Assembly: GCA_964016885.1 (NCBI GenBank)
Contig: OZ024741.1
Coordinates: forward strand, 216,566,001-216,630,000
Reading direction: 5' to 3'
Source: Eledone cirrhosa
Lineage: Eukaryota
DNA length: 64,000 nt
Shown here piece by piece: positions 4,108 to 57,167 of this stretch (position 1 is its first letter; each line of letters begins with the position of its first letter). The notes under the pieces are model-generated. The model had not been told where the DNA came from and searched no databases. It was given only the letters and a program-made list of their open reading frames with translations. Both the position numbers and the translations under genes were made by a program.

Positions 4108-4108
4108 T

Positions 4109-7704: not shown

Positions 7705-8235
7705 CATCGGTAACTACTGAGCCGCAGGTTTTATATCAAAGTTATCCCAGTTTCCTGGAGTTGCCTTCTCCTAGAAGAATGCCCTGACAAAGGCTAGGGG
7801 TCCTTCCCTCCCAGTGGTTTAACCGTGCGGTACATGTGTATATACATATTTACACACTTTTGGATGGCCGTTGACTCTTATGAGTTCTTCCGCCCTTTGT
7901 CAAGTTTTGTTTTTTGTCCTGCAGGGTATCCAAAATCACAATCCTCACCAAGTAAACTTGGTGGGGTTGCCGGTTTAGTCGCCGACGACCCGACCATGCG
8001 ACAGGTTCTACTGGGTTACATGTTACCAGTAGCACTCAAGAGTGACCCGAGTGATCTTTTCTTCTTTTTGGGTTATAGCTACTATCTCTCAAAGAGTGGG
8101 ATTGGCTCAGTGCACAGCCTTTCCTCACTTTAAAAAATATCTTCACGCACAGGCATTGCATGATAGAATTCATTAATAATTATTAATAATGGTATATCGT
8201 GCCATGGCCATACTCGATAACGAGGGGGCAGCCAT
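7705..8235. mobile_element. Rearranged relative of the 5853-6455 repeat (inverted 5' part joined to forward 3' part)
   Basis: Reverse complement of 7850-8048 aligns to 5856-6045; 8055-8235 aligns forward to about 6145-6455 with a gap. Confidence 0.6.
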
Positions 8236-18137: not shown

Positions 18138-18377
18138 TATTTCTTTATTAGCCACAGGGGCACAAAAGAAGGTGACAAATACAAAGGGGGAAGTTTACAT
18201 ACAATAAAAACGTGTAAAATACTATCACAAATGCAATTTAAAAATTAGTCGATTTTCCCCAATAGGGGGAGACATTTCATATGGGTAACACATACCCCCG
18301 AAAAAAAATGTGCAACCCTCATCTCCAGGAGTACGAAGAGTGAGTACCCCTTTCCTCTCTTCCTCTTTTTCCTCAAC

Positions 18378-21300
18378 CTACAGGCTGATATAGAGCGAAG
18401 GCCCATTCACTCAGGCCTTTCTCGCCACTTTCACCCACCTTTCATAAAACTTGCTGGGGTACAGCGCCTCTCTCCATCCTGATTCTTATTCTAACTTTAG
18501 AATATATTTGAAGGTATTTGAAAAAAAGAATCAGTTGTTGGCCGGAGAGAAAGGTGTCTGACATCAGCCCTTTTAACCTTGTCCACCATACAGCCTCTTT
18601 CGCCATAGCTATCACACAAAGGAAATTCGCCTCTCCTTCGTTTTTGAAGGAGGGTGGCGGTTTGATCATGACAATGGACTCGGTGGTCAACCGGATTGGT
18701 CCCACCCGCGACAATAGTCGTTCTACATAGCCCCACACGTCGGTGACGCCCGGGCAGTGTATGAATGCGTGCGCGACGGTTTCTTCGTCTCGCACGCACC
18801 TCGGGCATATCATTTTTGCAGGGTCCCCTCCCGGGCGCCCATGTTGTAGAGCTTGTCTCGAACTGGTAGAGCTCCTCGGTAGCACTGCCAGGCCAAGGAC
18901 TTTTGGAAGATGTCCATCGGTCCCGGGCGGAAGGTCCTACCGAACAGACTGGCCGGTTCGTCTTCCTCTACGCCTAAAGTTTCACCGAGCGCGTCGTCGC
19001 ACTTGCTGCGGATCAACCCTCTATAGAATGACGAAGTGGAGTCTCCACTGATCGCCGGGTCCGCCTGCCAGAGGGCTGTGAGCACCTGAGCACATTCGAT
19101 GTGCCAGTCGCCCATTTTTCTCGGTCTTAGCTTGACCCAGGACTGCAGCTCGGTCAGCGAGACGAGTCGTGGGAAGGCTCGCCTCACGAACGGGGCCCAC
19201 ACCGGTTGTCCGGTGAGGAATACGTAGAGATGCCGCAGCCTGAGCGCGTGTTTGCGAATCGTCAGCCACGGCATCCCCAGCCCTCCGTTGGAAGGGTGTT
19301 GGCAGCAGATGGATCTTCTCACCAAAGGAGCCCGCCTCTTCAAAGGAATTGGAAGAGCGCGCGCTCCATTTTGGCGAGCGTTTTGGCTGGACAAGGCACG
19401 ACGGTCAAGCGGTAGTAGATGGCGGACGCTATAAAAGTGTTCGCCACCTCCGCTCGACCTTTCAGGGATAGTTTTAACTCGGCCCACTTCTGGGTGAGTG
19501 CAAACACCTTGGCCGACACCTCGTTCCAGTTTTTCTCCACCTGGAGGTCCGGACCAAACCAGACCCCGAGCAGCTTTACCGGTCCTTCCGTCCAGCGTCC
19601 GACGACGCCATCGGAAGGCATCGGTTTGCCTCTCCACGATCCGAGTTGCAAACCGATGGACTTGTCCCGGTTCAGCTTCGCTCCTGTGAACCTTTCGTAT
19701 TCCTTCAGTAAGGTACCGACTTCTTCGATGTGCGAGGCGCTCAACACCATTACTGTCACGTCGTCGTCATAGGCCGACGCCGCTTTCCGCAGTCCCGGTT
19801 CCAGAAGGATGCCCTGTAATAGCTCCAACTTCCGCAGTAGTGGATCGAGAGTCAGTACGTACAGAAGGGAGGAGAGAGAGCATCCCTGTCGAATGGATCG
19901 CGTGATATGGAACGGCTCCGAGAGGTAGCCGTTCACCTTGACCCTTGAGCAGATGTTGCTGTTGTGCATTGCAGTAATCCAGCCCCTGAACACGGGTCCG
20001 AAGCCTGCCGCCTCGAGCACCGCATCCAGGTAACGATGGTCAACCCTATCGAAAGCCTTAGACTGATCGAAGTTGATCAGGGCCCCACCGAAGCCGGGTT
20101 TACACCCTACCCTCTCTATGATGTATCGCATGAGGTGGAGGTTGTCGTGTATGAACCTGGTCGGGATTGCGCTTCTCCCACCAGGTTCTCGACGACAAGC
20201 GCCAGCCTCATTGCCAAAACCTTGGCCAAAATCTGTAACTCTGTGTTTAGCAGAGTTATGGGCCGGAAGTTGCCTATGTCATCCCCCTTATTCTCGTCCT
20301 TCCTGACTAGTGTGACTACGCCCCCGGTCACAGAACTGGGAATTCTCCGTTCTGTTGCCAGTTGCAGTAGACCGCTTCCAGGAAACCGGAGAATAAGTCC
20401 AGCATTGCTATGTAAAATTCGTAGGGTAGACCGTCGAGACCTGGAGATTTGCGTTTGCCGCATTGGCTCAGCGTGTCCCCTATCTCAGCGGCTGAGGTCG
20501 ACCTTTCACAGAACTTTACCTCGCTGTCCGAGAGTCGCGGTAGGACGCCGAGGTATGGACCGAAATCCATAGCCCCTCCCGGCGCGCCGCCCTGCCCGAA
20601 CAGTTGAGCAAAGTGCCGCTGAAAGGCCGCACACATCTGCTTCGGCTCACGTATCACGCGTCCGTTTTGGTCCTTCAAAGCCCGAATCGTGGAGATGTTG
20701 CCACTTTTTGCCTCCATCACTCGGGCCCAGCTAACAGCTTTGGCTCGCTCGTTTCCCAGAGCACGTATTTTGCTTCTGACAACGCAGCCCTCGTGCTTTG
20801 CGTCGAAGAACTGGTCCAAGGCCGTTCTCGTTGCTAGCACGCTAGCTACGTTGCCACTTCTAATTGCCTCTTCTACTTTATCTACCAGTTCCTTCTCGGT
20901 TCTATTTCTAATTCTTTACTAAAAACTATCGAGTCTAATCTAACTGCCCTCTTGAGAGAGTACTATCATCTGTTGTTGACAATGGCCCCTGTCAAGTGCT
21001 GTTTAACTAAAGTGCTAATCCGTCTACTGTAGGCTTTGCATGTCGGTAACGACAAGTTCAGCTTCCAGTGGACGGTCCTTGTCTATGGGTTCTATCAAAG
21101 TTGACCATGCAGGTCACTAGTTTGTGATTTGAATAGGCAACCATGAACATTTGTGGACAGCTTAACATGTCCCTATCCTTATTTCTAACTAGAACCTTAT
21201 CTAGGTACGATCTAGATGTTCCGCTGAGATTAGTCCACGTCCACAGTGGCACAGTCGGAAAATCTAGTCGATATCTATCGGCCAGGTCAAATCGGCCGAT

Positions 21301-21794
21301 TAACTGTTACACCCCCCTTTATCGGGACATGCTCCCACATAGTCCCAACGTGCATCTAGGAATCCATTCCAGTCCCCCACTAAAAGCAAGGAGCGGGGCG
21401 TTCCCAGAAAAGTCTCTAGACGTTTGAAGAAGTCTGGCCGCGGTGTCCCGGATGGGGCATATGCGGCCACCAGCCTGAAGGCTCTACCTTCACTACTGTC
21501 AACGTCTAGGACCACCTGTCGACCCTCCTGGTCCAGATGTACCGTCTGTGTTACGAGGCCCAGGTGTTTCCGCAGCAAAACAGCAACCCCGCTCCTACCC
21601 CCCGGCCGACAGAGAGATGCGTAGATCTCAAAGTCATCGAAGATGGAGGCCAGCTGTCGCTCGCTGTGGATCCTGGACTCGCAAATGGCTACTACATCCT
21701 TAGTGTGCGACCTGAGGTCGTTTAAGAGTTTGCCCTGTTTCTAGGGCATCCCCAGGCTGCGTAGATTCACACATCCAACTCTTATATTGGCCAT
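18378..21794 (-). pseudogene. Family B ORF2 (APE-RT), multiple frameshifts
   Basis: Pieces GDWN, SYLDKVL, KSPGLDG, FDQSKAFDRV, YDDD (mutated YADD), CPRC in changing frames. Confidence 0.9.
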
Positions 21795-21828
21795 GTTGGT
21801 TCTGAAAAGTTAAAAGAGAAGAAAACAC

Positions 21829-23380
21829 TCACCTCTTCGTCTCCCGGGGATCAGGCCGCACGGTTTCCATGGGGGTGTTAGACGGGTTGTCTGGGTGGGT
21901 GGTGGTTTCCGGCGGGGTGGGGACGGAGATGTTTGGTGGGGTGGGGGTGTATGGGGTGAGGGTGGGGAAATATTTTAAAAGGACGCGGTTAATGGGTTTA
22001 ACACAAGGATTACCCACGTCCTTAGGAAAGTTTTCCTTTAAAGACTTATAGGTGTCCGTAGGGACCCTAATCATCTTTAAATTAGGTTTGTCTACACAGT
22101 TCGAAAAAGTTTTCCCTTCGGTTTTCACCGAAGGGTCGTTGGAGATGACCTCCATTAAAGTTTTGTTTTTACTGTTTATGTATGTGTAATGTTCTTGTGG
22201 TTTTTGTCTGTTGTTCTTGTGGGAGCTTTCGTTTTGTTGTAGGTGTTTGTGTTTGGAGTGATGTCGTGGTTTTGTTTTCGGGACGGGGGTTTTTTGTTTG
22301 TAATGTTTGTGTTGTTTGTGTTGGTGGTTATATGTTTGTAGTGATGTTTGTTGTTTTTTTGTTCTTGTGGTGTCTTTTCTTCTTTCTTTTTCGAACGGAG
22401 AGGCTCTCCCTCATGGTGGTGTTGGTGGTGGTGGTGGTGGTTGTGTTGTTGTTTTGGGTGTTGGCAGTAGTGCCTCTTTATTTTTGTAGTTAACTGAGGA
22501 CAGTAAGCCTTCAGGTGACCACTGCTTAAACAGTGGTAACATGAAGGCCGCCTACCCTCAACAGAAATGTTTATTTATGAAATTCCATCCAGAGGCACAC
22601 GTTGGGGTATTTTAGCTATCCGTTCTGGCCTCATTTGGACCAGAACTTCCATGCTTGTAACATTGAATGTGCCTCTGGAGGACTTTCCCACCGAAATGAT
22701 GGTGTCTTCGTCGAAATCGCTGAAGCCAGTTAGAATCCACCAGACGTTTACATTTGGTGCAATGTTCAACATTTTTATTTTTTGTGTTCTTTTTCCCATA
22801 CATGTGGGGGAAAAGGTGTAAAGGGGGGACACAATCAACGATACAGAATATTTTTGTGCTGTCAATTGGTCTCTCAACAACACCGAAATGCTTCCAAAAA
22901 GTTTCCCTTTTTGGATGAAGGCAATATCCTTCATGGAATTCTTCACATCAGGTCAATATCGTTTTGGGATAACTGAACTGGTTTTTTCGACACATTTGAA
23001 ACCGTCTTAAAAATTACTGTTTTTAGAACAGTTTCTCTGCATAACTGTTGAGGAGAAGTGATGCTGAAAGCACCACTCTCACCAAAAGTTACGTATTGTT
23101 TTGCATCGCTTAACATTTCCCTAGCATTGGAAATGTCAAGGTATCTGAACAGTTCCGTCTTTTGGACGGTTTGAGCAAAGGAAATCTTTTCCTTGTTCGT
23201 GGAGTTGTTCGTGTTGCTGTTGTTGTTGGTGGTGTTGTTGTTATCATTGTTGCTGTTGTTGTTCTTGTTGTCATTATTGTTGTTGTTGTTGTTGTTGTTG
23301 TTGTTCTGGTTGGTGTTGTTTATATTTTGCATGTTATTGGTATTTGTGTTAGTGTTGATGTTACAATCAACGTCCGACAT
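21829..23380 (-). pseudogene. Family B ORF1 (CCHC knuckle), disrupted
   Basis: KISFAQ, KTVIFKTV, VQMRPERIAKIP, GRRPSCYHCLSSGHLKAYC and VKPINRVLLK align with family A ORF1. Confidence 0.85.
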
Positions 23381-29517: not shown

Positions 29518-31615
29518 TAAAAGAGAAAACACAGGTAAGCATTAAGAGAAGGATTTTATCCAGGTATTTACGACCGTTTCATTGGTAAGTGCAACCTTAT
29601 ATTGCTATACTGCAAATAGCAGCCACTCAAATATAATTGTTGTTCACAGTCCAAATTTTCAAAATAGTGAGTAAGTTACTCTTGAAATAATTCTTAATAT
29701 ATAGAGAAAAATATTTATTTGGAATTGTATTTACTAGTATATAGAGAGAGGAGTCCGAAGGTGAGGGGACAAACGGAATAGTATAGAGAGAGAGGAAGGG
29801 GGAAGAGGTAGGAAGTAGAGTGATGGAGAGAGGGGTAGAGGTGGAAGGATTCCTTGGTCAGCTTTGATAGCAGACTTCATGTCGTGGAATGTAGTGAGTT
29901 AAAGAGAATTAAATTGATCATAGTGGGAGGGATGGATAGAGAGGGAGAGAGAGAGAGGGGGGAGATATAAAGAGATAAATATATATATATATATATAAAA
30001 AATAAAGATAAAGATAATAATGACAAAAATAAAAGCAAAGATGGGGGTGAGAAAGAAGAAAAGAAAAGATAGCCAAGAAGGGAGGGAAGGAATGAAGAAA
30101 ACGAAGAAATAGAAGAGGAATGAGGGAGAAGAGGGGATATATTTATTGCTTAACGCTCAAAAGATACATAACAACACCAAAACACAAATTTACAACAATA
30201 ACAATACAATCACCACCGAACACAACAGAATATCTAATACACAACCACCCACTAATAGGCAAACAAAACGTAACACACTTGTACAGGCATCGCAACGCAC
30301 CAATAATGCCCAATAATGCCCATGACAAGAACGGTAACTGCCACCTACCTGAAACCTGCCCATTACATAATGAATGTATGCAGTCTAACCTGGTTTACCA
30401 ATGCACAGTGGAATCAGACAACCAGAAATGGTATTACATCGGAGCGACTGGGAATACATTTAAAGCCCGTTGGTATACACACCGTTACGCAATGAAACAT
30501 TCCCAGCACCGTTATGTAACTACCCTTGCAAACAAGACCTGGCAACTGAGGGAAAGTAACCATCAATACACCCTGAAGTGGAAAAAATTATCGAACGCGC
30601 CCCATATCGGAGTGGTATGAGAAGCTGTCGATTATGCGACCTTGAGCTGTTCCACATCTTGAGTTCGAAGAATAAGTTACTCAACAATAAAATAGAAAGA
30701 TCAATTTATTGTAACCATAGACTCAAAGAGAAATTTTCGCACTACAAATCGAACCCTTAACCTCTTACTACCAACTGACAAACTGCATATACTTAGACTT
30801 TATACCCTCTTGTTGTATCTAAACCCTTTTAATTACCCACGAAACCAATACATATATCCCCCTCTTCTCCCTCATTCCTCTTCTATTTCTTCGTTTTCTT
30901 CCTTCCTTCCCTCCCCTTCTTGGCTATCTTTTCTTTTCTTCTTTCTCACCCCCATCTTTGCTTTTATTTTTGTCATTATTATCTTTATCTTTATTTTTTA
31001 TATATATATATATATTTATCTCTTTATATCTCCCCCTCTCTCTCTCCCTCTCTATCCATCCCTCCCACTATGATCAATTTAATTCTCTTTAACTCACTAC
31101 ATTCCACATGAAGTCTGCTATCAAAACTGACCAAGGAATCCTTCCACCTCTACCCCTCCCTCCATCTCAGGTTGTCACTCTACTTCCTACTTTTCCCCCT
31201 TCCTCTCTCTCTATACTATTCCATTTGTCCCCTCACCTTCGGACTCCTCTCTCTATATACTAGTAAATACAATTCCAAATACATTTTTTTCTCTATATAT
31301 TAAGAACTATTTCAAGAGTAACTTACCCACTATTTTGAAAATTTGGACTGTGAACAACAATTATATTTGCGTGGCTGTTATTTGCAGTATAGCAATATAA
31401 GGTTGCACTTACCAATGAAACGGTCGTAAATACCTGGATAAAATCCTTCTCTTAATGCTTACCAGTGTTTTCTCTTTTATACTTTATACTCCAAGATTGA
31501 ACGGAATTCTTACAAACTTGTGGAGTTACCCCTAACCGTACGTTAAAACAATCCATGAAACTGGCTTTCTTAACCAAGAACTGGATCACAATAAGCAATT
31601 TTTTGCTTCTCTAAC
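29515..31615 (+). mobile_element. 5'-truncated Penelope-like element with inverted pLTR (arms about 29515-30145 and 30850-31483)
   Basis: ~630-bp near-identical inverted arms flank a GIY-YIG ORF remnant; (TA)n outside. Confidence 0.85.
30150..30760 (+). pseudogene. Penelope-type GIY-YIG endonuclease domain, frameshifted
   Basis: CPLHNEC..NLVYQCTV...YYIGATGNTFKARWYTH...LKWK / IIERAPY..CRLCDLELFHI..LLN. Confidence 0.85.
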
Positions 31616-35826: not shown

Positions 35827-38000
35827 TTAGGGAGAAGTGTTTAGACGGGGTCCGTATTTGTTAATAAAGTGAGATTCCTTGCTGATGCGCTGGGTGTGGG
35901 TGGCATTATCTTTAAATTTGTAGAGGGGAAAGATTCTAAAGTTGGGATGATTTGGGGCGGTACAGGTATCAATGTGTTCACTCAGTGGTATTTTCCTGTA
36001 TTCCCGTATTTTAATTTGGGTTCTATGGACAGTCATGCGTTGGCGGTGGCTGTTTTTGGTCTGGCCTATGTATTGTTCTCGACAACTTGAGCAAGTTAAT
36101 ACATATAATAGATTTTCTGATGCGCATGTGAAATTGTGTTTTACTATAACACGTTGTCCTTCTTTGAAATAAAATTCCGAACCCTCTATTAGGTTGATGC
36201 ATATGCCACAGTTGGGTCTATCGCATTTTTTTACTGTGGGTTTCGTTGTTGAGGTTGGCAGTACTTTGGCATGTGTTAGGATGTTTTTCATTGACTTAGA
36301 TTGTCTTTTGCTCTTTATGATATCGTGTGTTCGAAGGATTTGGTTCATTCTATGGTCCTTTTTTAACACAGGGATGTTCTGGAGGATGGTGTCAAAGGCC
36401 TCATTGTTGAGGGGTTGTGTGTGGAGATGTATGGAAGAGCTTTTAGTTTCGGTTGATTTACTTTAGGGTGTCTAAGGTCCTGGGTACTGAGTTTTAGGGC
36501 TCGTTGGATTCCATTGTCAATTAGTGATGCAGGGTAGTCCCTGCCTATGAGTGTGTCCTTTAGTTCTTGTAACCGTAAGTAACAGGTGTTTTTATTGGAG
36601 ACTATAGTACAGATTCTCTTGGCTAAGTTGTAGGGAATATTAATTTTAACGTATCTAGGGTGGCAAGAGTTGAAAGAAAGATATTGTTTGGAGTCTGTGG
36701 TCTTGTAGTATATGTCTGTTTCTATTTTTTTGTTATGAATCTTAATGAGGATGTTGAGGAAGAGGAGTTGTTGATGGCTGTATTCCATCGTAAAGTTAAT
36801 ATTCGTGTTGAGCCCATTTATAAGGGTGTGAAATTCTTTAAGTTTCTCGATGATATCGCTTCCAGTTCTTTTCTATGTGTAAGTGGAGAGTGTTTCAAAA
36901 TTTGTTTAGTTCTTTAGTGTAGAGGGTGATTTCCAGGTATCCCATGACTAGGTTGGCATAAGTGGGGGCTGTTTTCGTTCCCATAGCGGTCCCATTTTTC
37001 TGCCTGTAGGATTTGTTATTGAAAACGAAGTAATTGTTCTCCAAGATAAATTTGAGTCCATCTATCACGAATTCTTTTTTGATGCGTTGTGTGAGTTCAT
37101 TGTGATAATTATCCAGCCAGAATTGGATAGCTTCTATTCCTAGGTTGTGGGGGATGTTGGAGTATAGGTTGACTACATCGAACGTCACTAGTAGGGTTTG
37201 TTCAGAAAGGGGCATATTAGGGAGGTGATTGAGCATATCTAGGTCATCCCTTATATAGCTTTTGATGTGTTTGAGAAAAGGCTTGAGAAGGGTATCAATG
37301 AAGTTGCTAAGGCGGTGGGTTTCGCAAGCGGGGCCTGCTATTATAGGTCTTAATTTGAGATCATTGGGTGAGGGGACATTGATGACTATGTCTGTGGCTT
37401 CCTTGCATGCCTTACTTATTAATTCGCTTTTATGTACTTTAGGGATACCGTAGAAAAGGCTGGATTTACTTGTGAAGTCTGTGATGAAGCTGAATTCCTT
37501 GTTAGTGAGTCCTTCTTTGTATTGGTTGATCAGAGTTTTTAGGTTTCTCATAATTTTCTGTTGATTGTGGTGCCTTTTCGTAGTATGTTTCGTTTTCCAA
37601 AGTGGAGAGCTCTAAGTTGATATAGAATTCTGTCTCCATTAGGACTACTGTACTCCCTTTATCAGCCTCTTTAATTGTAATGGTTCTGTCGGTTTTTAAT
37701 CTATTTAATTCTTCCCATTCTTTCTTGTTGAGGTTTAGCTTGTGTTTTTGTCTGTGCAAGTGTTGGTAAGGGAAGTTTGTGATGTGTTCACAGAATTCGT
37801 CCAGGATTTTATTTCTACCTTTTGATGGGGTGTAGTTACTCTTATTTCTGGCTAATGATTCATCCTCATTGTACTGGTCGAATAGTTCTTCACTGAGTCG
37901 TAACTTTCTACAGAAGTCTGTGATGTCTTCCTTCATTTCATAGTAGTTAGGACGTAGTGGGGTCGGTGTGAATAAAAGACCTTTGGAGAGTAAGTTGATA
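35827..38000 (-). pseudogene. Penelope-like element ORF (RT + GIY-YIG), frameshifted, catalytic DD deleted
   Basis: [90 protein letters not shown]. Confidence 0.92.
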
Positions 38001-42934: not shown

Positions 42935-43202
42935 ATATCTAGTAATCTATCTATCTAAATTAGCTAACATAATCTAGCTGTCGTCTGTTCTACAGTGTGG
43001 ATGTCATTCACTTCGCACAGAAGTTTTGTTCAAATTTATTGAGGAAATTTTGTGAGTTCAAACTTAATTTTGATACAATTGTGTAGCTTGACCCTCCGTC
43101 TGAACTGTCAGGCGGTGGGTCAGCTCATCTTTACCCCTCCTAGAGGTGAAAAACCTGTTTTAAAAAAAATTTTGTGTAAAAAATTTCAATCGTCTAACAG
43201 AA

Positions 43203-45107
43203 ATGTTAAACGCAGCGAACGAAAATAGTGGTGGGGGGACAGCGGTAAGAGTTGTAAGCTCGCACGCTTTAGTCCTCCCTTCCTTCCCAACTAACGTCAT
43301 AGAGAAGGAAGGAAAAATGAAAATAAAAACGGACGAATCTGCGGAGAAAAAATTAAATGACGAAAACAACGAAAAAAAATTAAATGACGAAAACAACGAA
43401 AAAAAAAAATTTGAAAAATTGCATGACAATACTAATAACACAAACAAAGACACAACAAACAAAAAAATAACAGTTGAAAATAACATCATATCAGAAAACA
43501 AAGCAGACTACAGGATTTCATTTGCACAGAAAACAAAGAAATCTTTGACTTATATAGCGGAAAACATTTCAGATGTGGTACGAAGGATCACGGACGCAAA
43601 ACAATACATAAGTGAAGGTGAGAATGGTATTTTATTGGTAAAAATGCCTCAAGAATTCACGAAAGACATTGAAAGCCGAACGGTCAAGTTTCGGACCATC
43701 AACAACAGTACAAAAAAACCTGAACAGCCTTCTCAAGCAGATATCAAAACAGTACTCGCAGAAGTACTGAATGAAACAACTTTCATAAGAAAAGACAGAC
43801 TGTATGGAAGCCTAGCAATTATCATGAAGAACGAATCGGCGGCAAAAAAATGTGCTTTGTCACCGATTCGTTCGAAAAATTTCACCTTTTATCCATCTTA
43901 TATGGGAAAAAAAACTCAACGCATATGGCTGGATGCAATGATGCCAGATGTGGACTACTGCTGGCTCATAGCTGGCTTCATCGATCCAGTGAATGACAAC
44001 GTGATTTCCATTGGGAAAACCACAGGCAATGCGTTCAGTGGAACAGGTATAGAGCTGGTAGTACAAATGAAGCCTGAACGCATCGCCCAAATACCCGACA
44101 GAATCCTATTAGAGGACCACGGGTATATAAACATTAGCGTGGAGGGGAGAAGGCCGTCCTGCCATATCTGTGCAGGCAGAGGGCACCTGAAGGCCGCTTG
44201 TCCCCAACTCAACAAAAAGAAAACCCTGCTACCAACACCAGCTCCACCACCACCACCACAACAGATAAACAAACAACAAAACTCAGTCCCACCCAACCCG
44301 TCCCTCAGTAACACCACAACACCACCACAACACAAACAGTCACAACACATTACCCCAAAACAAAATACAGGCCCACCCAACCTCTCACTCAATAAAACAA
44401 CACAACCACCGCAGACACAACACACAACACAGTCTAACATAGTGACATCCATCTCCCCCACAAAGAAAACCAACACGGAAACATTACCAGCAAACATACC
44501 TCTTCCCTCCAACACTGAAGATAACCCAACGAATTCGGAGGAAGAAACGGAGTCCTTCAGACAGATTAAAAGGAAAAAAAGAAAACATGTGCAAAACACA
44601 CAAGGACAAACAACCCCCACCCAAATCGCAACACAATCTAACAAAACAGAAAACACCCCTCCAGCAACAAACAAAACCAAACCTGCCCCTCCCCTCTTCG
44701 AAACACTCACACCATCGGAAAAAAAGACATTACACTATACTTACATCAACAGAAACAATAATAAATTAAATGAACTCATATACAATAATCCTTCGGTACA
44801 AACCGAAGGTGTAAACTTTGTTTCATCAGAAAACCACCCACATTTAAAACTAATAAAAATCCCAATGAACCTCTACCAAAAACTAAAAAAGGATTTTAAG
44901 GAGGACGTAGGACCACCCTCTGTCAAACCCATAAACCGCGTCCTACTAAAAAGCTTTCCCCCTCCCCTTCCCCTCCCCAACACAACTCCAAACACCCCAA
45001 CCCCACCACACACCGACGACCCCACACCACCACAAGACACCCCTTCACCCAACACCCCCGACCCCATGGAAGTCGTGCAACCCGAACCCCGGGAAGCGGA
45101 AAGGTAG
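43203..45107 (+). CDS. Tx1-like ORF1, 634 aa, with CCHC zinc knuckle and Pro/Thr-rich linker
   Basis: Uninterrupted ORF upstream of ORF2; CHICAGRGHLKAAC; homologous pieces in families B and C. Start codon uncertain. Confidence 0.88.
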   Translation: MLNAANENSGGGTAVRVVSSHALVLPSFPTNVIEKEGKMKIKTDESAEKKLNDENNEKKLNDENNEKKKFEKLHDNTNNTNKDTTNKKITVENNIISENKADYRISFAQKTKKSLTYIAENISDVVRRITDAKQYISEGENGILLVKMPQEFTKDIESRTVKFRTINNSTKKPEQPSQADIKTVLAEVLNETTFIRKDRLYGSLAIIMKNESAAKKCALSPIRSKNFTFYPSYMGKKTQRIWLDAMMPDVDYCWLIAGFIDPVNDNVISIGKTTGNAFSGTGIELVVQMKPERIAQIPDRILLEDHGYINISVEGRRPSCHICAGRGHLKAACPQLNKKKTLLPTPAPPPPPQQINKQQNSVPPNPSLSNTTTPPQHKQSQHITPKQNTGPPNLSLNKTTQPPQTQHTTQSNIVTSISPTKKTNTETLPANIPLPSNTEDNPTNSEEETESFRQIKRKKRKHVQNTQGQTTPTQIATQSNKTENTPPATNKTKPAPPLFETLTPSEKKTLHYTYINRNNNKLNELIYNNPSVQTEGVNFVSSENHPHLKLIKIPMNLYQKLKKDFKEDVGPPSVKPINRVLLKSFPPPLPLPNTTPNTPTPPHTDDPTPPQDTPSPNTPDPMEVVQPEPREAER

Positions 45108-45140
45108 GTCTCTACACTCTCCTTTGGCTCTGCCGCCCAC

Positions 45141-48100
45141 ATGGATGTGTTAAGAGTAGGATGTTTGAATGCACGTGGCCTGGGCTCAACTTGGAAGCAA
45201 GCAAAGCTTCTAAATGACCTCAGGTCATGTAGTATAAATGTAATGGTTATCTGTGAGACTCGAATCAGCGTCATGCGGCAGCTGGCCCCCACCTTCGATG
45301 ACTTTGAGGTGCATGCATCTCTCTGTCAACCTGGAGGTGGGGGTGGGGTTGTCGTGCTGCTGCAAAAACACCTGGGTCTTGCCGTACAGGTTGTGCACTC
45401 GGACCCGGAGGGTCGTTTGTTGGTGCTAGACGTTGGCAGTAGTGAAAGTGCGGCCTTGAGACTGGTCGCCGTCTACTCCCCTTTCGTTGCTGAACGGCCC
45501 GACTTCTTCCAGCGTTTGGAGACTTTTCTGGGAACGTCGCATTCCCTGCTTCTAGCGGGGGATTGGAATGACATCCTAGATGCACGTTGGGACTATGCAG
45601 GAGCATGTCCTAATAGAGGGGGGTGTAACAGCCTCAAGGGGTTACTCGACCGTTTTAACTTGGTCGATAGATATCGACTAGATTTTCCAACTGTGCCTAC
45701 CTGGACTTGGAGAAACCACAGTGGTCAATCTAGATCGTACTTAGATAGATTCTTAGTTAGAAGTAAGGATAGGGACATATTAAGCTGTCCAGAAATGCGC
45801 ACGGTTGGCTACACGGATCACAAATTAGTGACCTGCGTGGTCAATCTCGAGAAAACACATAGACAGGGTCCCGGTTACTGGAAACTTAATTTGTCTTTAC
45901 CGGCAAAAGAGACTTACAGAAACCGGATTAGCAGATTAGTTAAGGAGAGGTTGACGGGTGCAATCGTCAACAACCGATGGTGGGCATCTCTCAAAAGAGA
46001 GATTAGAACAGAATCAATAAGTTATAGCAAGATGTTAGCTGCCAATAGGAATAGAAACGAGAAAGAATTAACAGGTAAATTAGAAGAGGCAATCAAGAGC
46101 GAAGATGTGGCCAGAGTGCTGGCATCGAGGACGGCCTTGAACCAGTTTTTCGATGCAAAGCATGAAGGCTGCGTCATTCGATGTAAAATACGTGCTCTAG
46201 GTAATGAGGGGGCCAAAGCCGTTGGATGGGCCCGCGTGACAGAAGCTAAAAGTGGAAATCGATCCACCATCCGGTCGTTGCAAGACGAAGATGGACGAGT
46301 GATCCGGGAGCCTAAGCAGATGTGCGAGGCCTTTCAAAAGCACTTTGCCCGATTGTTCGGGGGAGGCGAGGGTCCGGGCCGGGGCGTGGATTTCGGTCCA
46401 TACCTCGACGGCCTGCCGCGTCTCTCGAGCAAAGAGGCAGAGTCCTGCGAGGGACCAATCTCGGCTGATGAGATCGGAGATGCGCTGAGCCAATGCAGCA
46501 GACGCAAATCTCCAGGTCTCGATGGTATACCTTACGAACTTTATTTAGCAATGCCGGTCTTCTTCTCCGAACTCCTCGAAGCGGTCTAGTGCAATTGGCA
46601 GCAGAACGGGAGAATTCCTTGTTCTGTAGCCAAGGGCGTAGTCACGCTGGTGAGGAAGGACGAGAAAAAGGGGGATAGTATAAATAATTTTCGGCCCATA
46701 ACCCTGCTAAACACAGAGTTAAAGATTTTGGCCAAGGTGTTAGCAAAGAGGTTGGCGCTTGTCGTGGGTGGCCTGGTGGGAGATGCGCAGACATGTGCTA
46801 TCCCATCCAGGTCCATTCACGATAACCTCCACCTCATGCGATACATCATAGAGAGGGTTGGCAACAAACCCGGCTTCGGTGGGGCCCTGATCAACTTGGA
46901 TCAGTCTAAGGCCTTCGATAGGGTCGACCATGGTTACCTGGATGCGGTGCTAGCGGCGGCTGGGTTCGGTCCTGTTTTCAGAGGCTGGATCACTGCCCTA
47001 CATAGCAACCACATCTGTTCTAGGATCAAGGTGAACGGCTACCTTTCGAAGCCGTTCGAAATCACACGATCCATTCGACAGGGGTGCCCTCTCTCCTCCC
47101 TTCTGTACGTATTGACTCTCGAGCCTTTACTGAGGAAGTTGGAGTTGTTGCAGGGTATCCCCCTGGAACCAGGATTGAGCAAAGCAGTGTCGGCCTACGC
47201 CGATGACGTAACAGTAATGGTATCAACCGACTCGGAGATCGAGGCGATCGGTACCTTACTGGAGGAGTACGAAAGGTTGTCAGGAGCGAAACTGAACCGG
47301 GAAAAATCCATCGGGCTGCAACTCGGAACGTGGAGAGGCAAACCGATGCCTCCTGACGGTGTCGTCGGACACTGGACGGAGGGCCCGGTAAAGTTGCTTG
47401 GGGTCTGGTTTGGACCGGACCTCCAGGTGGAAAAGAACTGGAACGAGGTTACGAACAAGGTGTTTGCACTAACCCAGAAATGGGCCAAGTGTAAGCTGTC
47501 CCTAAAAGGCCGGGCGGAGGTGGCGAACATTTACATAGCGTCCGTCACTTACTACCGCCTGACTGTCGTGCCTTGCCCTAAGGAAACACTCACCACCATG
47601 GAACGCATGCTCTTCCAATTTCTTTGGAAGAAGCGTCCTCCTATGGTGAGAAGATCCATCTGCTGCCAACAACCTTCGAAAGGAGGGCTGGGGATGCCGT
47701 GGTTGATGATGCGTAGGCACGCATTAAGGCTACGGCACCTACAGGTATTCCTCACTGGTCAACCGGTGTGGGCTCCGTTCGTGAAACGAGCCTTTCCGAG
47801 ACTCGTCTCACTCACCGAGCTACAGTCCTGGGTCAAGCAAAGATCCGGAAAACTGGGAGACTGGCACACTGAGTGTGCTCAGGCGCTCAGGGCTCTCTGG
47901 CAAGCGGGCCGGACCATCGGTGGAGAATCCACCTCATCATTCTATAGAGGGCTGGTGGCTAGCAGGGGCGATGACACCCTTGGAGAGTCGCTGGACATGG
48001 AAGAAGACGAACTGGCCAGCCTGTTCGGTAGGACTTTCGGCCCAGGACCAATGGACAACTTCCAGAAGTCACTGGCCTGGCAGTGCTACCGAGGGGCTCT

Positions 48101-48578
48101 ACCCGTTCGAGAGAGGCTCTACAGACACGGGCGCCCGGGCAGGGATCCCTCAAAAAAGATTTGCCCTAGATGCGTGCGTCACGAAGAAACCGTAGCGCAC
48201 GCATTGGTGCAATGTCCGGGCGTGGCTGATCTGTGGGGCTACGCCGAACAACTGCTGTCGCGGGTGGCGCCGATTAAATTGACCGCCGAGTCCGTGATGA
48301 CAATCAAACCGCCTCCCCTCTTCACAAAGGAAGCAAAGGCGGTTTTTCTGTGCGTAATAGCCATGTTGAAAGAGGTTGTTTGGTGGACACGATTGAAAGG
48401 TCTGAGGTCAGGCAACTTCCTCTCTGGCCATAGTCTGGTCTACTTCTTCCGATATCACTTCGGAAGAAGGATAAGAATGGAGAGAGAGGTGCTTGGCCAC
48501 GGGCAGTTTTATGAAAGGTGGGTGATAGTGGCGAGAATGGCTCGTGTAAATGGGCCTTCTCTGTATACCATCCTGTAG
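45141..48578 (+). pseudogene. Family A ORF2 with a single nonsense codon (TAC>TAG at 46587-46589)
   Basis: Collinear with the intact 659-4096 ORF, about 20 aa differences by eye, same frame across the stop. Confidence 0.92.
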
Positions 48579-48819
48579 GTAAAGAAGTAAAGGAGAGGGG
48601 AGCACCTTCTCCATGTGCTCCCCGGGCAAAGGATTGCACACTTTTTCGGGGGTGTGTGCAACCCCCATCACGTCCCCTCCCTTTTGAGGTTATTTTCGAT
48701 TATTTTCATGTTACACCCTTTTTACTCGATTATATGTAAACTCCCCCTTTGTATTTGTCCCTTCTTTTTATGCCTTTATGGTAAATAAAGAAATCTATCT
48801 ATCTAAGTTAGCTAAATTT

Positions 48820-49195
48820 TACTATAAAAGAGAGGTGCTTTTTTTGTTGATTTACATTTAATAGAAAAACCCCGTGATAATAGAGGTTCCAATACTCAAG
48901 TTATGGGCTTCCAAAATGTTCACTATAGGGGGTTTAACCCCCATAAGGGTGTCTTAATATCATATCTTGTCATATACCTATGGTTTAAATTTCATATAAA
49001 TCGAAGGGAAAAGGTTTTCAGCGGGGGGTTGTGACCCCAGGAAACACCCCCTCCCCTCCGGGGAACCCTTTGATTAAAATGAAATATAATTATCCAAGTA
49101 CCCTGGGCAATGTAGTTTCAGAATATATCTCCAAAACCATAGGAAGAGTTCGTGAACAAACAAGCAAACAAACAGACTGGAACTACAACTTATAT
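48820..49195 (+). mobile_element. Possible Helentron-associated (DINE-like) non-autonomous element
   Basis: AAATTTCA..AAATCG motif and (ACAA)n microsatellite just before a T/TA-rich end; resemblance only. Confidence 0.3.
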
Positions 49196-51609: not shown

Positions 51610-51889
51610 TAATAATAATAATAATGCTTTCTTTATTGGCCACAAGGGCTGACACGAAGAAAAACATTAGGGACGGCACAGAACAGTACAGGACGATACA
51701 AAGTGGGTTTTGGTCGAGTAAACAGGTTATAACAAAATCGGGCTAGAAATCCAAAAAATTTCAAACAACAAAAATTAACCAAAAAGGGGGAAGCCTCCGA
51801 GGGTCACTCGTGGTGAAAACCTCACAAAAGATCACGGCCACCCTGACCATCAGGGCAAGCGCCCTCTCTCACTTTTCCCACTCCTCAGT

Positions 51890-54800
51890 CTACAGGCGTA
51901 TTATACTCAGAGCGGGCCCGTTCACTCGAACCAGACTCGCCACTTTCACCCACCTTTCAACAAACTTACTAGAAGACAGCACTTGCCTCTCCACCCTGAT
52001 TTTCCTCTTCAAGTGAAACTTGAAAAAGTTAATCAGGGATTGGCCGGAGAGGAAAGTGTTCGTCTTCAACCCTTTCAACCTTGTCCACCACACAATCTCT
52101 TTCGCCATGACCACCAGGCAGATGAAAACTTCCTGCCCTTCCTCCTTTTTAAAGGAGGATGGCGGGGCTCTCTGCACAAAGGACTCAGTCGATAACCGGA
52201 TCCATCCTACACGCGACAGCAGCTGTTCGACATAGCTCCACAAGTCAGCAATCCTCGGGCACTGAACGAGTGCGTACAGGACGGTTTCGTCGCCCTGCGC
52301 GCATCTCGGACAGGCTCGGCTGACAGCACCTCCGTGCCTGTAGAGCTTATCCTAAACCGGCAACGCTCCCCGGTAGCACTGCCAGCCAAGGATTTCTGGA
52401 AGTTGTCCATAGGCCCCGGTCTGAAAGTTCTCTTGAAGAGAACGAACAGCTGATCGGTTTCGACGCCCAGTGTCTCCCCGAGAACGTCGTCGCTCTTTTT
52501 CTCCACTAGCCCTCTATAGAACGCCGAGGTGGATGTTCCACCGATACTAGTGCCCAGCCGGTAGAGGGCGATGAACGCTTGGAGACATTCCAGCTTCTAA
52601 GCGCTATCCCTCGGTCTTTTCCTGATACAGGACTGCAGCTCCGTCAATGAGACGAGCTGGAGAAAAGCGCGTCTAGCAAACGGCAACCACACCTGTTCAC
52701 CGTCAAAGAAGCACCAGAGATGTCGCAGCCTTAGCGCATGTTTGCGCATCATCAACCACGGCATGCCTAGTCCTCCACGCAACGGGTGTTGACAGCAAAT
52801 GGATCGTCTGACCATGGGAGCACGTCCTTTCCACAAAAAGCGGAAGAGAAGGAGCTCCATTTTAGTCAGAGTTGGGCGGGGGGAAAGATACGACGGTCAG
52901 ACGGTAGCAGATGACGGACGCTATGTATGCAATCGCCACCTCTGCACGACCTTTGAGAGACAGCACCCTCTGGGCCTATTTCTGGGTGAGAGAGGCAACT
53001 CTGCTCGTCACCTCGCTCCAGTTTTTCTCCATCTGGAGGTCCGAACCGAACCAGACCCCGAGCAATTTAACCGGTCTTTCCGTCCAGCGCCCCACGACGC
53101 TGTCGGACGGCATGGACTTGCCTCTCCAGGTGCTGAGTTGTAATCCCACCGACTTTTCCTGGTTTATCTATGCTCCTGTCACCACTTCGTATTCCTTGAG
53201 AGCGGTGCCGAGCATCTGGACGTGTTTGGTGCTCGACACCAGTTCGCGTGGGACCCCCTTATCGTCTCCCGTTTGTATAGTAAAGGCTTACAAAAGGGAC
53301 GAGAGGGGGCAACTCTGGCGGACCGAGCGCATGATGCTGAAAGGCTGCGACAGGTGACCATTCACCCTCACAATCGAACAGATGTCGCTGTGCATCGCAG
53401 CGATCCAGCCCCTAAAAATGGGCCCGAAGCCGGCTGCCTCGAGGACCGCAGCCAGGTACTGATGGTCGACCCTATCAAATGCTTTAGATTGATCCAAGTT
53501 GATCAGGGCCCCACCCGTGCCAGATTCCTTAACCACCCTCTCTATGATGTATCGCATGAGATGGATCTGTCCAGATTGGCGTATGTCGGCGCCTCTCCCA
53601 CCAGATCACGGACGACAAGCGCCAATATCTTTGTTAACACCTTGGTCAAAATCTTAAACTCTCCGTTTAGCAGAGTTATGGGCCTGAAGTTATCTATGAC
53701 GTCCCCCTTGTTCGAGTCTTTTCAAAGCAGCCCCACCGCTCCCCGGCTCACAAAACTGGGAATACTCCCGTTCTGCTGCCAGTTGCAGTAGACAACTGCC
53801 AAGAGGTCCCTGAACAAGTCTGGCATATACGCATAAAGCTCGTAGAGCAGACCATCCAAACCTGGCGATCTACCCCCTGCGCAGTCAGACATCGCGCCCC
53901 GTATTTCACCTGCTGTTATCGGCTTTTCGCAGCACTGCGCTGCGGTCGTCGAGAGCCGCGGCAGTCCGTCGAGGTATGCACCGAAGTCCATACTCCGACC
54001 CGGCCCGCCGCCGCTCCCGAACAATTGAGCAAAGTGCTGTTGAAAAGCGGCACACATCTGCTCGGGTTCGAACAACATGCGCCCGTTTTGATCAGGCAAA
54101 GACCGAATTGTGGACCTGTTGCCACGTCGCGCCTCCACCACCCGGGCGCATTGAACGGCTTTTGTCCCCTCGTGTCTTAGATCACGCGTTCTAGCTCTGA
54201 CAACGCAGCCTTCATGCTTTGCGTTGAAGAATTGGTCGAGTGCCAATCTCGCCGCAAGCACGTCGGTTGCGATGCTTGTCCTAAACGCCTCTTCTAGATT
54301 TCTATCTCCCTCTCTACTTTATTTTCCTCTATCACTACTCCTTTGCTAAACCTTATCGATTCTACTCTAAAAGCCCTTTTCAGGGTAAACCACCACCTGT
54401 TGTTGACGTTCGCACCCGTCAACGCACGCTTAACTAATTCGCTAATCTGGTCTCTAAGCTTTGCGCGCCGAGAACGACGCGTTCAGCTTCCAGTAGCCAG
54501 GCCCTTGCCTATGGGGTCTATCTAAGTCACCTTCACAGATCACAAATTTGTGGTCCGTGTAATTGACTACTTTAAATTGTGGACAACCTACACTAGCCTT
54601 ATCTGTTTCCCTACAGAATACCCTATCTAAATACGATCTGGATGACCAGATGCGTTTTGCCCATGTCCACATTGGCACATTCGGATAATCCAGTCTATAC
54701 CTGTCAGACAGTTCAAAACGGCTGAGTAGGTTGTTGAGGCTTTTACACCCTCCTGCCCTGTCTACTAACCCCACATAATCCCAGCGTGCATCTAAGATAC

Positions 54801-55230
54801 CGTTCCAGTCGCCCACCAACACTACAGAGCGGGACGTTCCAACAATGGTCTCTAGACGTCTGAAGAAAGATGGCCGTCCTGCCCCTGTTGGGGCGTAGAC
54901 GGCTACTAGCCTGAAAGCATTGCCTTCGCTGCCGGTCACGTCCAGCACCACCGACTTACCTTCTGAGTCCAGGAAAATGGCCCGTATGGCGAGATCCAAG
55001 CCTCTCCGAAAAAGCACGGCAACCCCTCCCCCCGATCCTCGACGGCTGGGAGATGCGTATACATCGTAGCCGCCGAAGATCGGTGCGAAGGATCGTGCTT
55101 CGGAGACTCTGGTCTCGCTGATGGCCACCACATCTATGTTTAGTGACCTGAGGTCGTTGATCAGGTGACCCTGCTTCCAAGATGACTCCAGGCCACGTAC
55201 ATTTATACTGCCTATTCTAAGTACGGCCAT
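51890..55230 (-). pseudogene. Family C ORF2 (APE-RT), frameshifts and deletion around YADD
   Basis: INVRGL, SET, GDWN, SYLDRV, TDH, GPGYWKLN, LDQSKAFDRV, KEIVWWTRLKGL. Confidence 0.9.
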
Positions 55231-55261
55231 GTTGGATGAGAAACGGGGCAAGTGAGAAAGG

Positions 55262-57167
55262 GTCACTTACCTTGATCGTGTGGTGAAGGGACAGTAGAAC
55301 CGTCCCTTTTGCTGGTCATGGGTATTTCCAAGAGGATGTCAGTGTATATCCTCTTGGTAACCGACCCTCTGAAGTTTCCAACTGCGTTGGGGAATTTTTG
55401 CTTTAAAAGTTTGTAACGTTCTATTGAGATTTCAATGATGTTTATGTTTGTCGGGAGAGTTCTTGGTGTTGGTGGGGTGTAGTAGTGTTTTTCTTTTTGT
55501 GATGTCTGTGTGATGCTTTATATGTTGCAAGAGTTCTTTCTTTATTTGTCATATCTATGGCTGCGTACTTTATTTTTTTTTTTTGGGGGGGGGGGGCGAT
55601 TTTGTTGCTGTTTTCTTCTTGTTGCTGTTGGGTGTGTGTGTTTTGTTGTGTTTGCGATGTTGGTGTTTTGGTCATGCTGGTGGTGGTGTGGTTGTTGTTG
55701 GTGTGGATGCTTGTGGTGCTGATGTGTGATGGTGGTGGTGTTGCTGCAAGTCTCCTTGCAGCCTTTACCCCTCTTTGTCTGCCTTCGCTTTGGAGGGTGA
55801 AGCTAAGGGTTTTTTCTTTTTTCTTTTTTTTGTGGCAGACCGTTTGCCACTTCCCTCCCGCCTCATACTCCATGTCAGAATCCGTGGCGTCTGGGAGGGG
55901 TATGAGCTCCACTGCTGTTCGTGGTGGTAGTGGAGCCTGCTCCGGCGATTTTACCGCCGGCGTAGCTACTGCGACTGTTGGTGTTGCCGCCACTGTTGCC
56001 GCTGTTTTAGTTGTCCGTGGACTTGGTATGGGTGCCACGGACGTTGCACTCCTAGTCACCGTGGAAGGGTCTCCTGCCTCTGTTACCTGCCCTGCTCTTG
56101 GTAGCAGCGAATCAGGCGTCAGAAGGAGGGGGCCCTCTTCTTAGATGTCTTCTGTGGGCAGCAGGCCCTGAGGTGACCCTTCTGCCCACAGAGATAGCAC
56201 TTTGGGTGCCTTCCTTCCACGCTTATAGGGAGATGGAGCCCTTCTTCGAGGTCTATGAGGTCTGGGATGGCCTCGATGCACTCCTGATCAATCTGTATTA
56301 GCATTTGCATGCCTATTCCTGACCAGTTCTCTCTTCCCATTCTCTGTATTTCCAGTATGTTGTCTTCTCCTCGATTCCAGCCAGTATAGATGCGGCCAGC
56401 TAAGGTATGGGCACGTCGGACGGGACCTGGGTCACTTTGACCCTCACAATTTTCTGTCCGCAGTAGGAGGGCACCAAGACTATCTCCTCACTCTTTAGGG
56501 TTTCCAAAGAGTGAGACTTCGCCTCTCTTGGGGGATGGCGAAAAGTACGTCTACTCTGGCGTACTTTTTGCCTCGGGTGATGTGGGTTTTGCGCGCCCAG
56601 ACGCACCCCAAGGCCTTTTGGATTTGAGCCTCCGCGGCTCTCTCCAGCCGATGTGACATTTTGCTTACGGTGCGGTACGTCACCGTGTGCAGCTGCTGGT
56701 CTTTGAAGAAATCGGGTGGAGGTTTCAGGGAGATTCTATTTTCATTCCTTGTCACCATGGCTCTTGCGACTGCCATCTCCTCCTCCGTGGCTAGCACTGT
56801 CTCTATATTTCGGGCCACACCTGCGAAAGAAGTTGCCCCTTTTTCAGCGGCACCATTATTGCTGCCGCTACTGGTCTTGTTATTGGTTCTGTTGCTGTTG
56901 CTACTGCTACAAACGGTGTTGTTGGTGTTGTTGCTGTTATCACTGTTGTAGTTGGTTGTGTTTTTGGTGCCACCGTTGTTGTTGTTTTCGGTGCAATTTG
57001 TTGCTGTTGGTGTTGTCTTTGTTTATTTTCTTGTTAGTGGTGTTAATAGCGTTGTTGCATTTGTTGTCATTTTTTTCTGTTGTCTGTATTTTGGTTGACG
57101 CTGTTGTTGTTGTAGTTGGTGTGGTAATGTTTCCAAAATTAGTGTTCTCAGTGTTGTATTTGTTCAC
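55262..57167 (-). pseudogene. Family C ORF1, disrupted
   Basis: TVTYRTVSK, VEGRHPKCYLCGQKGHLRACC, C-terminal IEISIERYKLLKQKFPNAVG matching family A IKIPMNLYQKLKKDFKEDVG. Confidence 0.8.

Follow-up and report, generated by a model that had tools for sequence, protein, structure and literature searches.

What does a splice-donor motif do at the end of ORF1, the first of the two open reading frames (ORFs) of a long interspersed nuclear element (LINE)? The question is raised by a 64,000-nucleotide (nt) stretch of the Eledone cirrhosa genome (contig OZ024741.1, positions 216,566,001 to 216,630,000 of the forward strand; hereafter the window), the 3.0-Gb genome of an animal, with many microsatellites. 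Three LINEs in the window, of families A, B and C, have an ORF1/ORF2 junction, and in each of them an earlier note had found a 5' splice-site consensus at the ORF1 stop, from which it proposed that a micro-intron of 51-54 nt may be removed to make ORF2 as a fusion to ORF1, or that the site may be a U1-binding regulatory element. We report here that the signal is real and the fusion wrong. The motif is conserved throughout a LINE lineage, and it belongs to a larger, apparently undescribed RNA element, in which the sequences around the junction covary with those around the end of ORF2.

The donor motif at the ORF1 end

All three motifs were present: AG|GTAGGT at 45104 (+) in family A, AG|GTGAGT at 21832 (-) in B and AG|GTAAGT at 55270 (-) in C. 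So were the pyrimidine-rich spacers, the AGA at ORF2 codon 5 in each family, the donor-to-AG distances of 51, 52 and 54 nt and the TTTTCAG of B. Across 16 L1/Tx1-like families of this genome, G|GTRRGT was found at the ORF1 end in every one (16/16). Donor positions -1, +1, +2, +5 and +6 were invariant and +3 and +4 were always purines, while the flanks varied; from +10 to +22 the sequence was mostly pyrimidine, with free interchange of C and T. The motif overlaps a stop in most families, as had been described, and not in all, as it occurs in three reading phases: phase 2, phase 1 (C, H1-H3 and B2) and phase 0, in which family F reads through it. The frame offset of family C had been put down to decay; ORF1 is in phase 1 in 30/30 C copies, with a TGA stop after GTAAG, and decay is not the explanation. 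Nor are A, B and C fully independent witnesses: they belong to one lineage (67-92% ORF2 DNA identity among 15 family representatives), although the last 1.5 kb of ORF1 cannot be aligned between the main groups.

For an unbiased test, loci were picked by an ORF2 N-terminal pattern that ignores the donor. A genome-wide search gave 13,808 matches, and in the first 30 of these G|GTRRGT lay 30-70 nt upstream of the pattern in 27/30; among the three loci without the full motif, two had single changes and one also had a truncated left flank. GTRRGT was present in 40/40 longer loci, picked from the list to cover its variety, against a background of 31 occurrences in 83,775 nt (~0.009 per 25-nt window). 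A random 200 kb of neighbouring DNA added one junction. The motif matched the 5' end of U1 (taken from locus L308) at 7-9 of nine positions (-3 to +6) in 16/16 families, the complementarity that marks the 5' splice site of a spliceosomal intron.

The site recurs in a distant clade, at only about 40% amino acid (aa) identity in the ORF2 protein (ORF2p). Clade Z (L254-L307) consists of full-length LINEs in head-to-tail arrays with a period of about 6.5-6.8 kb; its source record is filed as a bacterial metagenome-assembled genome and is probably mis-binned animal DNA in a prokaryote genome set. Here G|GTAAGT comes immediately after the ORF1 stop, with the ORF2 ATG 13 nt further on, and GTAAGT continued in 54/55 views of the ORF1 end from overlapping loci, the 55th being cut by the locus end. 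A first metagenome scan found nothing, and two remoter elements, L308 (27% aa identity) and L245 (30%), had no clear donor. The reading as a splice donor or U1 site is thus supported, and we regard selection on the donor as highly probable.

Two further observations concern these sites. L308 is an L1-group element that lies between two U1 small nuclear RNA genes (1104-1267 and 8029-8205) in a tandem repeat, and is possibly a LINE that targets U1 arrays. A donor-like AG|GTGGGT also stands near the ORF2 end (window 48516-48523, +), made up of Arg-Trp-Val codons; it is found in 12/15 families and in clade Z, and may be protein-driven.

Could the donor be joined to the AG of ORF2 codon 5, as the earlier note had it? 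The join keeps the frame in phase-2 families having the AG; the phase-1 families C, H1-H3 and B2 and the phase-0 family F lose it, and family I, with CGA at codon 5, has no usable AG. The "intron" would measure merely 39-61 nt over the families, and in clade Z the donor comes only after the ORF1 stop. LINEs show cis preference, in that the RNA that makes ORF2p is the RNA that is copied, so a spliced RNA making ORF2p should be the one found in the genome; yet 0/606 copies of family A (those carrying a 16-mer of the ORF1 end) lacked the 51-nt spacer, none having anything but G after the exon end, and a micro-intron join pattern for eight families gave 0 matches genome-wide. For this pattern, and for the corresponding ORF1-to-3' untranslated region (3'UTR) pattern used below, the denominator is an estimate of about 6,000 copies, derived from the 13/30 blind loci that match the exon side. 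Spliced L1 RNAs do integrate (PMC5860796). The conserved AGA of codon 5 has another explanation, as it lies inside the predicted duplex described below. Readthrough of a single stop, offered for family A as an alternative, is not general either: ORF1 and ORF2 are open in frame across one stop in only 5/16 families (A, D, G, J and N), no more than chance would give. The micro-intron fusion is refuted as a general mechanism.

Predicted pairing between the two ends of ORF2

The spacer pyrimidines are complementary to a purine tract past the ORF2 stop, and the pairing continues both ways. In the predicted duplex (46-62 bp; full-arm energies of -46 to -75 kcal/mol by family) the ORF1/ORF2 junction pairs with the end of ORF2 and the start of the 3'UTR, 3.4 kb apart, such that the donor and the last ORF1 codons face the 3'UTR, CCAAC-ATG faces the stop region and ORF2 codons 1-7 face the last ORF2 codons. 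Such a helix would loop out ORF2 and cover its start and stop codons as well as the donor.

The two arms covary. Predicted pairing was 8.5 kcal/mol stronger between cognate arms than when arms were swapped (permutation p = 5e-5; p = 1/5040 with seven lineages as units), and 5/6 shifted-window controls were null. The cognate site was better than all ~490 other windows of the element in 13/16 families, and with full arms the cognate partner was the best of its row in 8/16. Pairing was stronger on the sense strand in 14/16 families and 6/6 clade Z elements, as G-U pairing in RNA would predict. When about 3.8 kb of RNA was folded without constraint, the duplex was recovered in 3/6 tries (H2, D and B1). 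In clade Z the partner occupies the homologous position in ORF2, 30-90 nt upstream of the extended stop (best of about 530 windows in 6/6); a stem of 11 bp that covers the AUG is paired in 11/11 haplotypes, and three other positions show double GC/AT changes. The duplex is also present in L253 (best of 529 windows); it is absent from L308. Arm covariation and strand asymmetry together mark a conserved long-range helix, and we consider the modelled duplex very probably real.

Some results spoke against it. One shifted control reached p = 0.037 at the lineage level; the cognate site was equalled or beaten by 61 windows in family G, 5 in N and 1 in A; whole-RNA folding missed the duplex in A, the window's own family, as well as in F and in the Z element L279; the zone searched for the Z partner was widened after the best match had been seen at -90; and the cognate preference was weak among Z haplotypes.

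How does the donor sit in this structure? In mini-models it was fully paired in 4/9 families and partly covered in 5/9. Its pairing partner changes between families, and in H2 and F it lies in an open loop, so the duplex does not explain the donor. The 3'UTR segment that faces it (window 48600-48625, +, and homologues) can also form a local hairpin, and this other fold might set the donor free.

A candidate splice across ORF2 and its rivals

The ORF2 terminus, which reads CT(G/A)TAG in 15/16 families and mostly runs on into G and a purine-rich tract, offers a candidate acceptor. Synonymous-site conservation at this end of ORF2 was unexceptional (rank 68 of 422 windows). This ORF2-stop AG ranked first of about 250 downstream AGs in 11/16 families (ranks 1-6 with a second weighting) by an ad hoc score that was made after the site had been seen. 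Joining the donor to it brings a stop within three residues in 10/16 families versus 7/32 in the other phases (Fisher p = 0.01, not corrected for kinship), and spliced ORF1 protein (ORF1p) would be unchanged in A, D, G and M. The clade Z 3'UTR carries a strong pyrimidine-tract acceptor 240-280 nt in, and a second donor stands 14 nt past the ORF2 stop (63/63 views). In L279 (6473-6735) and L253 (6496-6645), a donor just past the ORF2 stop is followed by a strong acceptor 140-260 nt on; a retained 3'UTR intron is possible in clade Z and L253.

We propose that donor and duplex act together as a switch in splicing: all of ORF2 would be cut out of some transcripts, leaving an ORF1-only mRNA. U1 would bind the donor during transcription; 3.4 kb later the right arm would emerge along with the acceptor, which would be the ORF2-stop AG in most families here and would lie in the 3'UTR in clade Z, and splicing would compete with zipping of the duplex. 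If splicing committed first, the product would be an ORF1-only mRNA encoding ORF1p with the same or a slightly changed C-terminus, and ORF1p would be made in excess. If the duplex zipped first, it would hide donor, acceptor and ORF2 AUG alike, and the RNA would stay full length, available for reverse transcription and for translation of ORF2, probably by reinitiation after ORF1 ribosomes open the arm. Judged from sequence, this switch is a serious candidate for which doubt slightly outweighs belief, and we would say the same of the proposal that an ORF2-removing splice is used at all. We hold with more reserve still the general statement that a LINE lineage (ORF2p down to 40% identity) treats the whole of ORF2 as a retained intron, with a covarying 50-60 bp clasp that sets the split between ORF1-only and full-length RNA and licenses ORF2 translation only on complete RNAs.

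Several observations weigh against such a splice. The ORF2-stop acceptor ranks only 4-23 in H1-H3 and C, it is lost in family E, where the stop is TAA, and the score that favours it elsewhere was built on a known site. Pairing, too, accounts for its pyrimidine tract and TAG|G, and the case for an acceptor is weaker for it. Tails of 28 or more residues would be gained in 6/16 families if spliced, and L253 has the duplex with no donor at the ORF1 end, its junction reading TAATG. Genomic copies joined from ORF1 to the 3'UTR were found neither in family A nor with the eight-family pattern (0 matches), nor among about 1033 copies of family H (0), nor in 1.16 Mb of retrieved loci; families C, E and F were outside the genome-wide search. 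Three candidate spliced genomic matches and locus L244 turned out to be point mutants of unspliced copies. Since cis preference would keep an RNA without ORF2 from being copied often, the missing spliced copies are expected and support neither side. In contigs from four sequence runs (X1, X2, X5 and X6) matched to 42965-49185, neither a 45103-45155 nor a 45103-48579 join is among the 15 joints listed, and contig depth in X1 was higher over ORF1; as contigs neither prove absence nor rank depth, we give no weight to these observations.

U1 might instead occupy the donor without any splicing, aiding transcription through ORF2 until the duplex evicts it once a 3' end exists; full-length RNAs would then be exported, and premature ones, with their 5' splice site exposed, retained and degraded. 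Exposed 5' splice-site motifs do cause nuclear retention, via U1-70K and ZFC3H1 (PMC9074902), and U1 at the donor of the plant element Evade suppresses premature termination (PMC5580714). No acceptor is needed for this, so family E and the weak acceptors of H and C would fit, and both donor and duplex are conserved. It leaves unexplained the phase-matched stops past the ORF2 stop and the strong 3'UTR acceptor of clade Z, and it sits awkwardly with a donor only partly covered in five of the nine mini-models. ORF2 also holds only 0-2 A(A/T)TAAA per family, leaving little to protect, and with so few poly(A) signals telescripting alone is a weak candidate. We think U1 binding without splicing unlikely as the whole account, though worth keeping in view.

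The duplex could also serve translation: it would keep the ORF2 start hidden as long as no ribosome has reached the end of ORF1, so that ORF2 would depend on ORF1 and on a complete 3' end, with the donor look-alike a by-product of stacked stops and pairing. The centring of the duplex on the ORF2 start in both clades suits this account, as does L253, where the duplex accompanies a TAATG stop-start and the ORF1-end donor is absent. Family F (L168-L173) has ATA for ATG at the ORF2 start in 6/6 copies, overlapped by the ORF1 stop; ORF2 is open for 1145-1146 codons in 2/3 copies checked, with the first Met at codon 34 or 56, a sequence pattern pointing to non-AUG reinitiation. In SART1, a structure downstream of the stop-start is required (PMC5972666). 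Against a by-product, the donor's partner varies by family and forms an open loop in H2 and F, yet five motif positions stay constant, and the motif is kept in phase 0, where it is not a stop, and after the stop in clade Z. A purely translational role seems to us rather improbable. The splice switch, U1 binding without splicing and a translational clasp can coexist.

That the motifs are unselected remnants common to related families is very improbable: the identity among families, the 16% of four-fold sites that are invariant and the codon-forced AG|GTGGGT kept in 12/15 families would allow for inheritance, but the ORF1 ends are unalignable between main groups, the motif recurs at 40% aa identity and the arms covary with double changes, and this covariation largely refutes inheritance or chance. 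The fusion, or readthrough of a single stop, is barely credible on the evidence given above.

The elements and their place among known systems

The coordinates of the window's elements are collected in Table 1. Profile searches of ORF2 returned PF03372, PF00078 and PF13966, and its closest match in the PDB is human L1 ORF2p (E 4e-50). An ORF2 with APE endonuclease, reverse transcriptase and C-terminal zinc finger, an ORF1 upstream and a poly(A) signal or 3' tail place these elements in the L1 group. ORF1 of family A had no Pfam match, and a homology search with ORF1p gave no match; a CCHC zinc knuckle (CX2CX4HX4C), a trait of the Tx1 clade, was seen by eye where Pfam was silent. (TATC)n or (TAT)n stood 3' of the poly(A) signal in 19/32 loci and in 27/29 H2 loci, counts in which tail and target are not separated. 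Membership of the Tx1 clade is plausible from the zinc knuckle and the microsatellite association.

Table 1. Positions in the window of the LINEs, their reading frames, the junction motifs and the predicted duplex arms
Feature	Position	Strand	Remarks
Family A full-length L1/Tx1-like LINE	42960..48795	+	flanked by (TATC)n tracts; 5' end approximate
Family A ORF1	43203..45107	+	634 aa; CX2CX4HX4C knuckle seen by eye
Family A 5' splice-site (U1-complementary) motif AAG|GTAGGT	45101..45109	+	overlaps ORF1 stop
Family A ORF2	45141..48578	+	APE endonuclease, reverse transcriptase, zinc finger; split in this copy (ORFs 45141-46589 and 46836-48578)
Family A candidate 3' splice site	48555..48578	+	putative; pyrimidine tract and CTGTAG|G at ORF2 stop; confounded by duplex
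Family A AATAAA poly(A) signal	48784..48789	+	
Left arm, family A	45092..45161	+	ORF1 end, donor, spacer, ORF2 codons 1-7; predicted -59.4 kcal/mol, 52 bp
Right arm, family A	48554..48623	+	last ORF2 codons, stop, purine-rich 3'UTR start
Family B LINE	about 23400-18140	-	ORF1/ORF2 junction present
Left arm, family B	21774..21844	-	donor 21832, ORF2 ATG 21794; predicted -66.0 kcal/mol, 58 bp
Right arm, family B	18327..18402	-	around ORF2 stop, last base 18378
Family C LINE	about 57540-51630	-	ORF1/ORF2 junction present
Left arm, family C	55209..55282	-	donor 55270, ORF1 phase 1; predicted -80.0 kcal/mol, 60 bp
Right arm, family C	51838..51918	-	around ORF2 stop, last base 51890
5'-truncated family A copy	659-4108	-	1145-aa ORF2 intact (659-4096)

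Other features of the window and its families stand apart from the junction question. The truncated copy of family A (659-4108, -) breaks off inside the spacer, and its insertion site is another family's (TATC)n tail. Among 16 representatives (L144-L183) the kinship of ORF1 and ORF2 is discordant, with the B1 ORF1 resembling those of D, K and M and the B1 ORF2 grouping with B2, a sequence pattern that suggests swapping of ORF1 near the junction. ORF fragments resembling a reverse transcriptase and GIY-YIG at 35827-37936 (-) and 30120-30620 (+) look Penelope-like by eye.

Two open questions are how a bicistronic LINE RNA yields far more ORF1p than ORF2p and how translation of ORF2 is confined to intact RNA; inefficient reinitiation is the usual answer. 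A duplex that holds ORF2 at its two ends and has a U1 site within it would be a concrete, mutable cis element for both, and clasp and donor are found in young, high-copy families (606 copies of A; about 13,800 ORF2 starts). The covarying clasp is, with or without splicing, an apparently undescribed structural feature. We found no description of an ORF2-spanning LINE intron or clasp in the open-licence literature, as represented by titles and the beginnings of abstracts, with Repbase notes outside this scope; the excerpts of PMC5203782, PMC13282606 and PMC13534243 mention no ORF2-spanning splice.

Among named relatives, the Tx1-clade elements Kibi and Koshi share the EN-RT-zinc-finger ORF2, an ORF1 zinc knuckle and an association with microsatellites; the repeats here are (TATC)n and (TAT)n, unlike theirs, and the excerpted description of Kibi and Koshi mentions neither splicing nor a duplex (PMC4494074). 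Human L1, whose RNA processing includes SpORF2, SpIREs and premature polyadenylation, is likewise an L1-clade element with usable splice sites (PMC2896524, PMC5860796). The L1 donors, however, lie in the 5'UTR, and their splices are dead ends or remove ORF1 (PMC2896524, PMC5860796), whereas the donor here is at the ORF1 end, is apparently selected and would remove ORF2. AUG-independence is known from L1. Termination-reinitiation in SART1 and L1 resembles the present case in its bicistronic LINE RNA, in the structure or spacer that marks the junction and in accepting non-AUG starts (PMC5972666); the structure known there is local, whereas here the partner is 3.4 kb off at the ORF2 end and the splice donor is also covered.

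The closest parallel to the proposed switch lies in elements with long terminal repeats (LTRs). Drosophila copia splices out all of pol and so produces a gag-only RNA (PMC5580714). In the shGAG RNAs of the plant Ty1/Copia elements Evade and BARE1, too, the donor ends the structural-protein gene, splicing out the enzyme region yields an excess of structural protein, and donor-bound U1 plays a further part (PMC5580714). Each of those LTR elements has one gag-pol ORF; ours are bicistronic non-LTR LINEs whose donor would be gated by a predicted long-range duplex, with a splice that is read from sequence. They may work like copia-type subgenomic splicing, by analogy, without being members of that class. 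If the splice is true, LINEs have converged on copia's gag-only strategy.

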